Positions 5,567-64,000 of a DNA stretch of 64,000 bases are shown one piece after another. A program made the position numbers and the translations under genes. The notes under the pieces are model-generated. The model saw only the letters and a program-made list of their open reading frames with translations. It made no database searches and was not told where the DNA came from. Positions within the stretch are counted from its first letter, which is position 1. The number at the start of each line of letters is the position of its first letter. The DNA is from Candidatus Zambryskibacteria bacterium RIFCSPLOWO2_02_FULL_51_21 (GTDB taxonomy: Bacteria > Patescibacteriota > Minisyncoccia > Phycocordibacterales > Zambryskibacteraceae): NCBI GenBank assembly GCA_001824255.1, contig MHWQ01000002.1, positions 139,548-203,547 on the forward strand, in the 5' to 3' direction.

Positions 5567-5635
5567 AATGCTACAGCAATCTTCCAACAGGTCAAACGCC
5601 ACCTGTGGATAACTGAAATCTGATGTTGTCAGATT

Positions 5636-48679: not shown

Positions 48680-48751
48680 GGCCCTATCGTCTATCGGCTA
48701 GGACACAGCCTTCTCAAGGCTGGAAGCAGGGTTCGACTCCCTGTAGGGTCA
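48680..48751 (+). tRNA. tRNA-Glu (anticodon CTC), no encoded CCA
   Basis: GGCCCTA-TC-GTCT-ATCGGCTA-GGAC-A-CAGCC-tTCTCaa-GGCTG-GAAG-CAGGG-TTCGACT-CCCTG-TAGGGTC-A. Confidence 0.85.
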
Positions 48752-60425: not shown

Positions 60426-60692
60426 ATGAAAGTAATATTCCTGCAGGATGTGAAAGGTAAGGGGAGGAAGTTTGAGGAGAAGCAGGTTCCCGACGGCTAC
60501 GCGCAGAACTTCCTCCTGCCCAACAATCTCGCCATAGTGGCAGACAAAGCCGGCCTCGCCAGAGCAAAGCAGGTGAGAGAAGCTAGTGAAGCTAACAAAG
60601 CTAAAGAAGCTACGAAGCTAGCCGAGAAAGAAGCCGAGCGCAAGAAGAAGCACGAGGCGCTGGAGAAGTTTAGGAACTCACAACACTCATAA
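60426..60692 (+). CDS. rplI: 50S ribosomal protein L9, N-terminal domain only (88 aa)
   Basis: '[41 protein letters not shown]' matches the L9 N-domain. Only the helical linker follows, no C-domain. Confidence 0.7.
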
Positions 60693-60960
60693 CCTTCTTT
60701 TTCATAATCGAGTTGTCGAAGTGGATTTTGCGCTTGTAGGAGATGGCGACCTTGCCGTCAACTGCCGCGAAGAGGGTGTGGTCCTTGCCCATGAGCACGT
60801 TCTTGCCCGGCAGGACATCGGTGCCGCGCTGGCGCACGAGAACGTAGCCCTTCTTGGCGAAGGAGCCGGGAGTGGCCTTGATTCCCAGATATTTCGGATT
60901 GGAATCTCGGCCGTTTTTAGTTGTACCCGCGGACTTTTTATGTGCCATAATTAAGCTCAA
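60670..60960 (-). CDS. rpmA: 50S ribosomal protein L27
   Basis: '[24 protein letters not shown]...VRQRGT...GKDHTLFA'. Confidence 0.85.
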
Positions 60961-61337
60961 TGAGTGTAACAGAAGAGGTCACTTTTGACAATAGCGGCCG
61001 TATAGAACGCTTTCCTTGGGCCAGGAAGTTCTACCTCTCGGCTGTCATAATGTTGGTGGCTCTATTCTCTTTTGCTCTGGGCAAGCTCTCAGCTGGGGAT
61101 AATAGGGGAGAAGCAGTCAGGATTGAGTACGACCCCAACCTTTCTGCCGCCTCGGCAATAACCGCCGTCTCAACCTCCAAAACCTCGGTCGTGGCCTCCA
61201 AAAACGGCAAGAAATACCATTATCCGAGCTGCCCGGGAGCCAAACAGATTGCCGAAGCCAACAAAATAGTCTTCGCCTCGGCCGAAGCCGCCGAAGCTTC
61301 CGGATATACCCTCGCTAGTAACTGTACTAAGCCATAA
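60960..61337 (+). CDS. membrane-anchored protein with C-terminal Cys module (YHYPxCxG...GYxxxxxC)
   Basis: One TM, Ser/Thr/Ala-rich linker, then '[40 protein letters not shown]'. Confidence 0.45.
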
Positions 61338-61387
61338 AATATGGCTTAACAGAGCCACTCGGTAAACAATAGACCACATTTATTGCT

Positions 61388-61420
61388 TGACAGCAAGGTT
61401 GAGGTGTGATAGCATATTAG
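61388..61420 (+). promoter_or_regulatory. sigma-70-like promoter (TTGACA ... TGtGATAGCAT extended -10) preceding a ~120-nt leader
   Basis: 'ttgacagcaaggttgaggtgtgatagcat'. Confidence 0.45.
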
Positions 61421-61540
61421 TAAGTCAGCGAGAGCTGGCTTTTCGCTTGAAAGAGACCCCTCACGGGGATACGGAAACGGCATTCAAGATTACCAATTTA
61501 TCCCACTGTTATTCTTCAAATTACTACCATCAGTCTTCTC

Positions 61541-62002
61541 ATGAGTCTCTCTTCCGGTGCCTTGGCCGTATTGCCGGCGATTACATCTCCGGTGACCATT
61601 ACCGACAACAAGGAGGGGGAACTCAAGCAGATCTCTATTGAAGTAAGGTCAGAAGACTACGGACCGCTTACCGACCCGAAGAATGTCGAGAAATTCCTTA
61701 AAGATTACTTCTCGGACACTCCGATTCTCGCGAAAATCGGCAAGTGCGAATCCAGGAACAGACACTTCAACTCCCGGGGAGAAGTTCTCCGCGGCGAGAA
61801 GAACACCTACGATAGAGGGGTAATGCAAATTAACCTTCTCTATCACGAGAAGGATGCCGAAAAGCTTGGTCTCAACCTACACAACATTGACGATAACGTG
61901 GCTTACGCCAAGTATCTCTATGAGAAGCAGGGTGCCAAGCCGTGGATGTCCTCCTCGGCCTGCTGGTCCAAGTTCGCTCCCAACGAAATCGCTAAGAAAT
62001 AA
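61541..62002 (+). CDS. Rpf-like 'transglycosylase-like' domain protein
   Basis: 'KIGKCESRNRHFNSRGE...RGVMQINLLYHEKDAEKLG...AYAKYLYEKQGAKPW' resembles the CESgg...G.mQI... pattern of Rpf/transglycosylase-like domains. Confidence 0.55.
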   Translation: MSLSSGALAVLPAITSPVTITDNKEGELKQISIEVRSEDYGPLTDPKNVEKFLKDYFSDTPILAKIGKCESRNRHFNSRGEVLRGEKNTYDRGVMQINLLYHEKDAEKLGLNLHNIDDNVAYAKYLYEKQGAKPWMSSSACWSKFAPNEIAKK

Positions 62003-62103
62003 TCAAATATGATTAAGCAAAAGCCGCCCAACCGGGCGGCTTTTGCTTTGGTTGACGACCTCGTATCAATATTGTAGGGTAGGGGAGGAAATGGAGGGCA
62101 GAT

Positions 62104-62472
62104 ATGCCAGTAGTGAATATTCGGTACCGTAGCGCTCACATCGCCGAAAACGAGATCGTGCAGCTTTCCTACAAGCTGCCTGGGATCGTCGCGGAAGCGC
62201 TCACATGCGATGAGCCTGGAGGAGAGCTTCTCCCAAGCGAGGTGGCGATTTACCCTACGCGCTTCTCCGAGCTTGACCGCTCGGCATACGGGCTCGAAAT
62301 CACTATCGAGCTCAACCAGTACGAGAGCAGGCTCGCCAACCTCGACCAACGCGCTCACCACATCGCGTACAACATCCGTAAACTCTTCAATGACATCTAC
62401 GGCGGCCGCGCCGTGAGGCCCAAAGCCTGGGTCTGGGTGCGAGTCTGCCCGGGCGAGTGGGTCGAGATCTGA
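62104..62472 (+). CDS. tautomerase-superfamily protein (N-terminal Pro-1)
   Basis: Starts 'MPVVNIRY' after a GGAGGG RBS. Beta-alpha-beta start typical of 4-OT/MIF-like tautomerases. High-GC patch. Confidence 0.45.
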   Translation: MPVVNIRYRSAHIAENEIVQLSYKLPGIVAEALTCDEPGGELLPSEVAIYPTRFSELDRSAYGLEITIELNQYESRLANLDQRAHHIAYNIRKLFNDIYGGRAVRPKAWVWVRVCPGEWVEI

Positions 62473-62490
62473 ACCGCCGCACACGAGAAC

Positions 62491-62527
62491 GCCGCACCGG
62501 TTCTCGGTGCGGCGGCTTTTTGTTTTA
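62491..62527 (+). terminator. Rho-independent terminator
   Basis: 'gccgcaccggttctcggtgcggcggc' + tttttgtttta. Confidence 0.7.
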
Positions 62528-62681
62528 TGCAAAAAAGCCCGCGGAGTACATCTGGGCTTTGCGTACAAGAGCTCGAAAGCTCCCCAGATCCGGCGGGCAG
62601 TCAACCTCGTCCACCCCGATCTATCTACGGGGAAGTGGGGCTTGACCAGTCTGACCCACTGGTAATTTTATTATAACATAC

Positions 62682-63647
62682 CTAGTCCTTCAGCGGATGG
62701 AAATCGTGGTGGGTCTTTTCGGCGTACTTGTCGGAGGCGTGGACGTAGCGAGTGGTAGTGTCTAGAGACTCGTGGCCGAGGAGGATTTGGATGGCGGCGG
62801 GGTTCGCGCCTGACTCGGCCAGGTATGTGGCGAAGCCGTGGCGTAGGGAGTGAGCCGAGGTGGGGACGTTGATGCCGAGAAGTTCGCGGTACTTTTTTAT
62901 TTTCATTTGCAAATAATTTGGGGAAATATGTTTTGCTTTGTCTCCGGAATTACGCCCGCCGGCAGGGAAGAGGTAAGGCAGGTCATCCGTGCGCTCTTTG
63001 AGATAATTGTCTATATGCTTCTTGGCCCTGTCGGTAAGGTAGATGAAGCGCTGTTTCTTGCCCTTGCCTTGGATGAAGATGCGCCCGCTCTTGTCGAGCT
63101 GGCTTATTTTGAGCGAAATGAGTTCTGAAATACGCATCCCGGAAGCGAATAACGTCTCGAGCGCGGCGCGATTGCGCAGGGCGACGAGTTTATCTTCTTC
63201 AAACTTCATCGGACACTCGATAAGTTGCGTGAGCTCTTTGAGTTCCGCCACTTGTTTATGCTTCTTGCCCATGCGGAGAAGCTTTACCGAGCCGGAAACG
63301 ATCGGCGTGGGCTCATCCATATCGACCAAGTAGCTCAAATAGCGTCTCAGAGTCGTCAGCGTGCGATTGATGGAGTTTGAGGAGAGGTCAGCTTTAGCTT
63401 TTTCTCCCGAGGCGGTCAGCCGGTCACGGGAATTGAGATAGGCCTTGAAGAGCTCGATAGTGCGCTTTTCGACCTTCTCAAACGGTATTTTGACCTCATG
63501 CTTCAAGAAGAGGGAGAAGACCTCCAAATCAATTTGATAATTGTAAATAGTTTCTTTGGAATAATTATTCGCTTTGATGGAAATCATGAAGTCGTCGAAG
63601 AGGGGGAGGGTGGCGGAAGCGACATCTAGTATCTTTTTCTGGGTCAT
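62682..63647 (-). CDS. tyrosine-type site-specific recombinase (XerC/D- or phage-integrase-like)
   Basis: SAM-like N-domain. C-terminal 'AHSLRHGFATYLAESGANPAAIQILLGHESLDTTTRYVHA' (R..HxxR...Y catalytic residues). Confidence 0.85.
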   Translation of the reverse strand: MTQKKILDVASATLPLFDDFMISIKANNYSKETIYNYQIDLEVFSLFLKHEVKIPFEKVEKRTIELFKAYLNSRDRLTASGEKAKADLSSNSINRTLTTLRRYLSYLVDMDEPTPIVSGSVKLLRMGKKHKQVAELKELTQLIECPMKFEEDKLVALRNRAALETLFASGMRISELISLKISQLDKSGRIFIQGKGKKQRFIYLTDRAKKHIDNYLKERTDDLPYLFPAGGRNSGDKAKHISPNYLQMKIKKYRELLGINVPTSAHSLRHGFATYLAESGANPAAIQILLGHESLDTTTRYVHASDKYAEKTHHDFHPLKD

Positions 63648-63662
63648 ATTGTATATAGATAG

Positions 63663-63690
63663 ACTGAGTATAATATCTCTAATACTCAGT
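63663..63690. promoter_or_regulatory. perfect 9-bp inverted repeat (actgagtat-N10-atactcagt) overlapping a TATAAT box upstream of the recombinase
   Basis: Read directly in the sequence. AT-rich 63650-63840. Confidence 0.4.
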
Positions 63691-63952
63691 TATAGTATAG
63701 CGAAGGTCTCTTGACAGGCAAACTCTTAACTGTGGATAAGTTTCTTTCTTTGCTCTATTCCCCACTAATCATGTCTCAAAAATTTCTCAAAATTTTTCTG
63801 TGACAAAAATATTTTTCTTTAATTAAAACGGGCCCCGACCTCAGTCGTCGGAGCCCTCTCCCCTATTGAGCGATGGGGGATTGATTTTCTTTGATATTTC
63901 TATTAAGGTAGCCCCAGAATCGTACACCCAAAAGCTAACTAAGGAGAGTGAG

Positions 63953-64000
63953 ATGGAGCGTAATTTTCGTCAGTTACTCGAAGAGCGTTGGTCCGAGGGC
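63953..64000 (+). CDS. 5' end of a CDS (MERNFRQLLEERWSEG...), truncated by the window
   Basis: AAGGAGAG RBS 6 nt before the ATG. Confidence 0.2.
   Translation, partial: MERNFRQLLEERWSEG

Follow-up and report, generated by a model that had tools for sequence, protein, structure and literature searches.

An Xer-type recombinase gene with a putative dif-like site in a probably ordinary, conserved chromosomal segment of a Zambryskibacteria genome

We analysed the 3′ end (60960 to 64000) of a 64,000-nucleotide stretch of DNA from Candidatus Zambryskibacteria bacterium RIFCSPLOWO2_02_FULL_51_21; the whole stretch is called the window. This patch carries genes for a membrane-anchored protein, a lysozyme-like protein, a 122-aa protein and a tyrosine recombinase, followed by the start of pyrF. 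In our reading the patch is probably an ordinary, conserved piece of the Zambryskibacteria chromosome that contains a module of an Xer-type recombinase and a dif-like site, and not an integrated element. It would connect ribosomal-protein and housekeeping genes on one side with cell-division and cell-wall genes on the other. The inventory was based on a six-frame open reading frame (ORF) list, Pfam and NCBIfam scans, and a promoter and terminator scan. Genes past 64,000 were read over 10 kb from the public gene calls of contig MHVK01000001.1, matched by exact protein, and the public calls gave identical lengths for the four patch ORFs. The ORFs, promoter, terminators, recombinase, inverted repeat and new gene start listed by an initial annotation were all present at their positions. 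The genes and the recombinase-associated elements are as follows.

60670..60948, minus strand: rpmA, ribosomal protein L27 (Pfam Ribosomal_L27, E 5.8e-30; the public call of 92 aa fixes the start at 60948).
60960..61337, plus strand: membrane-anchored 125-aa protein (ORF list).
61511..62002, plus strand: lysozyme-like (Rpf or lytic-transglycosylase-like) gene (probable ATT start at 61511; annotated ATG at 61541, giving 153 aa).
62104..62472, plus strand: 122-aa gene (GC 0.59; GGAGG 5 nt 5′ of the ATG).
62682..63647, minus strand: Xer-type tyrosine recombinase ("rec-A"), 321 aa (Pfam PF00589).
63663..63690, minus strand: putative 28-bp dif-like site (direct reading; 9-bp arms at 63663-63671 and 63682-63690).
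63694..63721, minus strand: recombinase promoter (TTGCCT, 16 nt, TATACT; scan).
63954..64000, plus strand: start of pyrF (orotidine-5′-phosphate decarboxylase, subfamily 2), which continues past the window end (281-aa gene call).

The recombinase matched Phage_integrase (PF00589) with an E value of 5.1e-34 and the SAM-like N-terminal domain PF02899 with an E value of 2.6e-8. The catalytic R, K, H-x-x-R, H and Y residues were readable in the translation (GMRISE, GKGKK, HSLRH and LGHESLDTTTRY). XerC (182 bits), XerD (173 bits) and XerA (166 bits) were the top NCBIfam models, followed by the generic Xer subfamily, while integron integrases, invertases and the site-specific integrase model scored far lower. 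The closest solved structures were XerD of E. coli (1a0p, 87.9 bits), archaeal XerA (4a8e) and XerH (5jjv, 52.9 bits), and then IntI4. On the XerS model the recombinase reached 93 bits (cut-off 267), and by model and structure scores it does not appear to be orthologous to XerS or XerH.

A large protein search gave 4465 recombinase homologues, the best 120 of which were all at least 70% identical and were labelled Zambryski-, Kaiser- and Nomurabacteria and Paceibacterota. Such identity in the best 120 looks like the signature of a slowly evolving core gene. Orthologues at 73-90% identity lay beside M23-gltX-murG-ftsW-mraY in all six look-ups, Kaiserbacteria included, and rpmA-rplI-ctpA-cysS lay on the other side in five of the six. 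The recombinases of two sampled loci, L006 and L028 (78% identical each), occupied the same chromosomal position. No close relative of the recombinase was found in IMG/VR, and none among 50,697 phage records, where the best match was 29% identical. The sequence comparisons support a housekeeping chromosomal Xer-type recombinase that was probably inherited vertically, rather than a mobile-element gene. A chromosomal XerC/D homologue had been the second option of the initial annotation, and it agrees with the best models (XerC, XerD, XerA), the best structures (XerD, XerA) and the stable position of the gene.

On the recombinase strand the site reads ACTGAGTATTA-GAGATA-TTATACTCAGT (11-6-11), and its two 11-bp arms, which flank a 6-bp centre, match as inverted copies in 10 of 11 positions. 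This inverted repeat, in the AT-rich stretch upstream of the recombinase, had been described as operator-like; the repeat is real and is better read as a dif-type recombination site. A protein search gave nine rec-A loci, Kaiserbacteria and other Paceibacterota included, and in each of them the site lay 5′ of the gene, with 0-5 mismatches. It stood 16-110 nt 5′ of the start codon in eight of the nine and about 720 nt away in L061. Each rec-A locus had one copy, the 64-kb window had one, and all loci anchored on the lysozyme-like gene (rpfL) and lacking rec-A were without it. In a metagenome scan with the 24-nt core of the site, 78 contigs were detected with a single copy in each. A rec-A homologue (47-84% identical) was encoded in 73 of them, and in 72 of these 73 no more than about 215 bp separate the site from where the recombinase match starts. 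Four of the five contigs without rec-A break off within 150 nt of the site. The viral contigs searched gave no match.

The site was inverted relative to the gene in 10 contigs, and lay about 0.7 kb away in L061 and about 3.2 kb away in L071. Because neither orientation nor distance alters the exact sequence, the element behaves like a site in DNA and not like a hairpin of the untranslated region (UTR). The centre is asymmetric and invariant over 6-10 bp, and the site as a whole is far more conserved than the surrounding promoter, across lineages whose proteins differ by 25-50%. By analogy with known systems, the 28-bp site looks like the recombinase's own dif-type chromosome-resolution site. 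The recombinase would bind both arms, exchange strands across the 6-bp centre and resolve chromosome dimers at division. The TATACT −10 element was conserved 4-5 nt upstream of the site in the window, L006, L054 and L056. In the window it ends 4 nt before the site, so transcription should begin within the site. As the site overlaps this predicted transcription start and the 5′ UTR of the gene, the bound recombinase would also repress its own gene.

The surroundings were compared by tblastn of the window proteins against 42 loci, obtained by aligning 32 homologues of the 153-aa protein and scanning one genome per GTDB species. Nearly everywhere the same backbone was found: dnaB-cysS-ctpA-rplI-rpmA-[membrane protein]-[153-aa protein]-slot-[79-aa ORF]-M23-gltX-murG-ftsW-(DUF2914/CAP)-mraY. 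Past 64 kb the genome itself continues with pyrF, a 79-aa ORF, an M23 peptidase, gltX, murG, ftsW, a CAP-domain protein, DUF2914, mraY and asnB. The membrane-protein gene and the 153-aa gene were fixed beside rpmA in nearly all 42 species loci, and with the backbone common to nearly all loci these first two supposed cargo genes are core genes. The proposed change of gene content after rpmA holds only for the slot, from 62003 on. Variation was confined to the stretch between the 153-aa gene and the M23 cluster, where the slot ranged from 278 bp to 5.4 kb. The window slot holds the 122-aa gene, the Xer-type recombinase and pyrF, and the new gene start noted after the recombinase was confirmed as pyrF at 63954 (TIGR02127, 243.8 bits, exceeding the cut-off of 110.6). 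Elsewhere the slot held two pyrF types, pyrE, murF, an Xer-type recombinase and a few small ORFs. The slot variation is turnover of housekeeping genes and not island cargo.

A second Xer-like subfamily, rec-B, occupied the same slot in L012, L016, L025, L026, L032, L033, L038 and L041. Its members were 76-89% identical to each other and about 31% identical to the window recombinase, with Xer-like scores of 228 and 224 bits. A conserved site of their own, TTCGTTTTACATATATTGTGCGAA, lies once per locus some 20 bp ahead of the ATG. No locus with both rec-A and rec-B was found among the fetched loci (up to 21 kb long). L012 is the second-closest sampled relative after L006, and its flanks are 80-91% identical to those of the window. 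When L012:10475-13994 was compared with the window from 62003 to beyond 64000, the recombinases were 30% and the pyrF products 32% identical; both genes are replaced like-for-like in L012.

Several points weigh against the reading of a conserved Xer and dif-type module. The recombinase scored below the equivalog cut-offs of its three best models (182 against 335 bits for XerC, 173 against 330 for XerD and 166 against 220 for XerA). With scores well below the XerC and XerD cut-offs, it is placed in an Xer-like lineage and is not a proven orthologue. The GC skew over 73.6 kb, including 10 kb past the site, was weak, with no clear sign change at the site. The recombinase is often syntenic, though not in every case: among the 33 species-representative loci with a defined slot, 23 had no recombinase and 7 had rec-B. 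The initial annotation had held that a recombinase grouping with XerC/XerD at a locus syntenic in all relatives would speak against an element, and apart from these loci this is essentially what was found. Finally, a palindrome that overlaps a promoter may simply be an operator for autoregulation.

The last point leads to the best-surviving alternative, which we consider unlikely: that the palindrome is only an operator or a 5′-UTR hairpin regulating the recombinase gene, and that the true dif, if any, is elsewhere. The site does lie between the −10 element and the start codon, over the predicted transcription start, and its arms could pair as RNA. The weak GC skew does not place the site at the terminus, and the rec-B genes likewise have a conserved element just before the ATG. 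Against this, Xer core sites have just this layout, 11-6-11 with an invariant, asymmetric centre of 6-10 bp. Its conservation far exceeds that of the surrounding promoter in lineages with 25-50% protein difference, and the exact sequence was kept in the 10 contigs where it is inverted and where it lies 0.7-3.2 kb off. The adjacency of gene and site is also typical of the known single-recombinase Xer systems (PMC5357621), and the operator and dif roles are not exclusive.

In these systems xerS lies immediately beside difSL "as a single module", and a dif close to the recombinase gene may be a hallmark of systems with a single recombinase such as XerS or XerH (PMC5357621). As in XerS/difSL of streptococci and lactococci and XerH/difH of Helicobacter and Campylobacter, the window recombinase gene adjoins a core site that is an imperfect palindrome (PMC5357621). 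The window module is also like them in having one site copy per locus and in not being on a mobile element. It differs in the length of the recombinase (321 aa against 354-362 aa for XerS and XerH), which moreover scores higher on the XerC, XerD and XerA models. The site differs as well, being 28 bp with an apparent 6-bp centre against 31 bp with an 11-bp centre for difSL, and the sequences are unrelated.

With XerC/XerD-dif and archaeal XerA-dif the module shares the best-scoring models and structures and the 28-bp 11-6-11 architecture. In E. coli and B. subtilis dif, the XerD-side arm has an inner TTAT, and so does the right arm of the window site. Unlike in XerC/XerD-dif, the window arms are near-identical (10 of 11 positions), which would point to a homodimer-type site and not to separate arms for XerC and XerD, and the recombinase is below the equivalog cut-offs. 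The site stands beside the recombinase gene in the window, and not so in E. coli. In a literature search, no description of a dif site in the candidate phyla radiation (CPR), Parcubacteria or Paceibacteria was found. The 28-bp site is a concrete, testable dif-type candidate for a large CPR lineage, apparently undescribed for the group. If true, the site would show where replication terminates in these tiny genomes of mostly uncultured organisms. It would also aid assembly checks of metagenome-assembled genomes and replication-rate estimates, and would add a lineage to the recombinase-plus-site modules.

A much weaker alternative is that the recombinase and its site form a gene-capture platform, either integron-like or a dif exploited by Xer-hijacking elements, which would explain the variable neighbours; we regard it as very improbable. 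The genes on the site side do vary (pyrF in the window, a 471-aa ORF in L006, none in L028 and L057, and other ORFs in L054 and L059-L061), and there were a weak match to the integron-integrase model (78.5 bits) and a structure match to IntI4. The 78.5 bits, however, are far under the cut-off of 265, and the Xer models scored much higher. No second site or cassette-type repeat was found around the variable genes, even with 10 mismatches, these genes include the housekeeping pyrF, pyrE and murF, and the site is not in viral contigs.

Least probable of all, and already largely refuted, is the integrated mobile element (prophage remnant, integrative and conjugative or mobilizable element (ICE/IME) or genomic island), whose integrase would have carried in three cargo genes, those of the membrane protein, the Rpf-like protein and the "tautomerase". 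In its favour are a tyrosine recombinase at the edge of a region that varies between species, the divergent L012 recombinase (30%) and pyrF (32%) between flanks of 80-91% identity, and the patchy distribution of the 122-aa gene; against it, about 40 species have two of the three cargo genes as syntenic core genes, housekeeping genes fill the flanks and the slot, the composition is ordinary, and the recombinase is highly conserved, positionally stable and Xer-like, without close viral relatives. Att repeats, a degenerate second site and an adjoining tRNA were also missing. No perfect direct repeats of at least 14 nt bracketed the block, and imperfect ones were at chance level, as were the only matches to a second degenerate copy of the 28-bp site with up to 10 mismatches allowed. 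No tRNA adjoined the patch, the nearest being at 48680. Phage, plasmid or conjugation genes were absent from the neighbours (rpmA, rplI, ctpA and cysS on one side; pyrF, M23, gltX, murG, ftsW and mraY on the other).

The initial annotation had proposed integrase-associated cargo and had suggested looking beyond 64 kb; the 10 kb read there contained no phage or plasmid genes, and no direct repeats or att sites were found. The cargo proposal does not stand, given the housekeeping flanks, the missing att-like repeats and adjoining tRNA, the ordinary composition and the core status of the supposed cargo genes. Phage and ICE tyrosine integrases with attP/attB share the catalytic superfamily (PF00589) with the window recombinase, and the window locus differs from theirs in lacking att repeats, phage or conjugation genes and a tRNA target, with a best phage match of 29%. 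The patch, a chromosomal Xer homologue among housekeeping genes, is not to be counted as an island.

Between the recombinase and pyrF two further elements were observed.

63731..63739, minus strand: perfect DnaA-box sequence TTATCCACA, upstream of the recombinase promoter.
63830..63880, both strands: two adjacent GC-rich hairpins in the recombinase-pyrF intergenic region (terminator-like matches at 63856-63830, minus, and 63859-63880, plus).

Four perfect copies of the DnaA-box 9-mer TTATCCACA were counted over 73.6 kb, where about 0.6 would be expected; the others are at 5604, 24736 and 40083. The 9-mer or a one-mismatch variant stood upstream of the rec-A and rec-B genes in most loci, and leaders of the lysozyme-like gene in some loci (L033, L042) contain it as well. 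It could serve as a promoter element under DnaA control, or be a motif found generally upstream of promoters. The hairpins at 63830-63880 lie between the divergent recombinase and pyrF genes, where a terminator is unexpected. A similar hairpin, CCCCTA...GGGGAGAGG, was present upstream of the rec-B genes in six other species, and no second copy of the element was found within the window.

On the 3′ side of the recombinase, L054 and L056 (8963-9502 in both) encode a 179-aa ORF with the start MDLIN.K.LLLDTN, which overlaps the recombinase 3′ end by 4 nt. It is PIN-like by eye and had no NCBIfam match. No relic of it was detected by tblastn in the 209-bp spacer of the window. A structured RNA 3′ of the recombinase (62520-62684, minus strand) was considered and rejected, with a z-score of −1.5 and no conservation in L006 or L028.

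The lysozyme-like gene forms the second subject of this analysis. The elements around it are given below.

61341..61358, no strand assigned: palindrome ATGGCT-N6-AGCCAC (terminator-like hairpin in the scan; 32-species alignment).
61387..61415, plus strand: promoter of the lysozyme/Rpf-like gene (TTGACA, 17 nt, TG-n-TAGCAT).
61422..61510, plus strand: candidate structured 5′ leader RNA (covariation, covariance model).
62015..62048, no strand assigned: bidirectional intrinsic terminator 3′ of the lysozyme-like gene (perfect 15-nt arms, A- and T-runs on both sides).

The 153-aa family had 338 homologues at E<=0.001, the best 120 of which were at least 59% identical. C69-E70-S71, D91, G93-V-M-Q-x-N98 and C141 were the invariant residues. 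The 153-aa protein gave no Pfam match at E<=0.01 (SLT and Rpf models included), no NCBIfam match and no PDB sequence match. Its predicted fold matched phiKZ gp144, c-type lysozyme, RpfB, RpfC and EtgA. The structure prediction points to a lysozyme-like alpha-helical fold whose first core helix ends in the catalytic Glu. As in Rpf and family-1 lytic transglycosylases, an invariant Glu is present, here in C-E-S, and G-V-M-Q-I-N resembles the GLMQ motif. The two invariant Cys are placed like those of the Rpf disulfide. With these fold and motif matches the earlier label "Rpf-like" is a fair description, short of membership in a Pfam family.

The initial annotation had placed this gene behind a strong promoter and a long leader. 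The promoter was indeed the best promoter-like site in the region, with 10 of 12 consensus matches (TTGACA-17-TAGCAT) and a TG extension; across 32 species the TTGAC of the −35 was invariant and the extended −10 was conserved. The start of the gene is the part to be revised, probably by 30 nt. Coding-like conservation continued 5′ of the annotated ATG at 61541, and the codon at the position of this ATG varied between ATG, TTG, TTA, TTC, ATC and GTC. The ATT 10 codons upstream (61511) was the most conserved codon. In several species an in-frame stop was present 14 codons 5′ of the annotated ATG, with three codons between it and the ATT. The codon-position entropy was 0.56/0.21/0.98 for codons −10 to −1 and flat (0.97/0.88/0.98) further upstream. 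From the alignment, the lysozyme-like gene most likely starts at the ATT at 61511, 30 nt before the annotated ATG, which leaves a leader of about 90 nt. With the ATT start, gene callers would truncate the signal-like N-terminus, or choose a still later Met in other species, and standard gene callers would thus mis-start the whole gene family. The ATT start would add a hydrophobic, signal-like N-terminus, consistent with an exported cell-wall enzyme.

The region of 180-300 nt 5′ of the lysozyme-like gene was strongly conserved in the 32 species, and two helices were recognized in the leader. P1 is a hairpin of 61422-61429 with 61434-61441, followed by a U-run; it was 100% paired, with two compensatory pairs. 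P2 pairs 61446-61451 with 61483-61488 and encloses a variable hairpin and a conserved UACGGNNACGG segment; four of its six pairs were changed on both sides. RNAalifold on the raw alignment gave P1 only, and P2 was specified by hand and then tested there and on independent sequences. The covariation score was 0.208 against 0.115 for shuffled alignments (0 of 500), and controls with slid partners reached at most 0.088. The covariance model matched the window once, at 61422-61519 with 85.6 bits, and gave 12 further matches in loci outside the training set, where the covariation was repeated. Six leader-model matches were checked against rpfL coordinates and all were directly 5′ of the homologous gene. 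Leaders upstream of the homologous gene occurred in L012-L044, L061, L079, L098, L102 and L126.

Rfam 15 gave no match to the leader, even at E<=10 (60900-64000), and a scan of the window at gathering scores found only tRNAs elsewhere. Rfam matches at E<=10 on the 62015-62048 terminator were rejected as chance. By its conservation and covariation the leader is a candidate new cis-regulatory RNA of Zambryskibacteria-type Paceibacteria. Its first hairpin and U-run could act as an attenuator of the lysozyme-like gene, and the enzyme would be exported after initiation at the conserved ATT, under control of the structured leader. Leader and ATT start together offer a candidate regulatory RNA for a cell-wall hydrolase, in organisms with little-known envelope biology. 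The palindrome at 61341-61358, just past the membrane-protein stop, had an invariant GGCT/AGCC in the 32 species and was duplicated in L006 and L036. It has no T-run on the plus strand, and the −35 follows some 30 bp downstream. Possible roles are termination of the upstream gene or binding of a protein.

Taken more widely, it is conceivable, and we put it forward tentatively, that Paceibacteria (CPR) resolve chromosome dimers with self-contained Xer-dif cassettes in two unrelated versions, rec-A with ACTGAGTATTAGAGATATTATACTCAGT and rec-B with TTCGTTTTACATATATTGTGCGAA. These would sit at the same position beside division genes in sister species, with the system swapped in place at a plastic terminus. 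The same tentative picture includes the lysozyme-like enzyme under a new leader RNA (a candidate riboswitch or attenuator) with a conserved ATT start. With two Xer-site modules in one slot of close relatives, one may ask how a system essential for chromosome maintenance comes to be replaced.

The 122-aa gene between the lysozyme-like gene and the recombinase had been assigned to the tautomerase family. The likeness to the tautomerase superfamily (4-OT, MIF, cis-CaaD) consists in a near-invariant Pro next to the initiator Met, in the size (about 120 aa) and in the prediction of two beta-alpha-beta units; the predicted pattern was beta-alpha-beta-beta-alpha-beta, with a predicted local distance difference test (pLDDT) score of 56.5. 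The assignment failed every model-based test. The protein had no Pfam or NCBIfam match, none of the 75 family members matched the tautomerase Pfam models at E<=1, and a PDB profile search with the family was empty. Alignment of the family with 4-OT and MIF by hhalign gave a probability of 2%. Membership in the tautomerase superfamily is not supported: the N-terminal Pro and the beta-alpha-beta prediction are the only points in its favour, and neither a sequence model nor a fold search lends it support.

An ORFan status, suggested by a word-index search with two relatives, was wrong, as an exhaustive profile search gave 368 cluster representatives of 115-130 aa. M1-P2, A30, L33, R76, W111 and P116 were near-invariant in the family, M1 and P2 at 90% or more in the 75 members. 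Positional homologues were 39% (L054) and 28% (L056) identical. Among about 130 loci the family was confined to the closest clade of this genome, where it always had the lysozyme-like gene on one side and the recombinase on the other. The 122-aa gene alone among those of the patch is patchy in distribution. The gene had been described as GC-rich, with a perfect ribosome-binding site and its own terminator. The GGAGG site and the terminator are present, and the composition is not distinctive: GC (0.591) and GC3 (GC at third codon positions, 0.748) are like those of dnaB, ctpA and the 125-aa ORF nearby. A foreign origin of the gene was ruled out by this match with adjacent core genes.

A terminator and a weak terminator candidate lie downstream of the 122-aa gene.

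62490..62514, plus strand: intrinsic terminator of the 122-aa gene (11-bp stem with 9 GC pairs, then a T-run; conserved in L006).
~62534-62560, minus strand: weak terminator candidate for the recombinase (7-bp AAAGCCC/GGGCTTT stem, then a T-run; direct reading).

Of the back-to-back terminators described earlier, the bidirectional one at 62015-62048 and that at 62490-62514 were confirmed, and the minus-strand terminator of the recombinase is a weak candidate.

The membrane-anchored protein agreed with its first description, having one N-terminal hydrophobic helix and a C-terminal KYHYPSCPG...GYTLASNC module in 125 aa. Its orthologues keep the N-terminal helix and the Y-H-x3-C ... G-Y-x2-A-x-N-C module, with Y86, H87, C91 and C122 invariant. 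Sub-threshold matches were obtained with Ada_Zn_binding (18.3 bits, cut-off 23) and with "sunset" NF051437 (19.2 bits, cut-off 27). Seven of 18 orthologues matched "sunset" at E<0.01 (best 1.3e-4), and one matched the L20-sunset variant at 3.9e-6. The C-terminal module of about 40 residues matches the NCBIfam "sunset" domain over nearly the full model length. This domain (NF051437/NF051448/NF051450/NF051451) is otherwise catalogued as a C-terminal extension of ribosomal S2, L17 and L20, and here it is free-standing and membrane-anchored. No literature on the "sunset" domain was found.

The positive residues before the helix suggest that the module faces outward. Since the membrane protein is constantly paired with the exported lysozyme-like enzyme, the two may have a common function in the cell envelope. 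The gene of this "sunset"-like membrane protein adjoins the ribosomal protein genes rpmA and rplI. The divergent start codons of rpmA (minus strand) and the membrane-protein gene (plus strand) are just 11 nt apart, so each promoter must sit within the other gene. A promoter-like site for rpmA was observed at 60991-60963, within the membrane-protein ORF.

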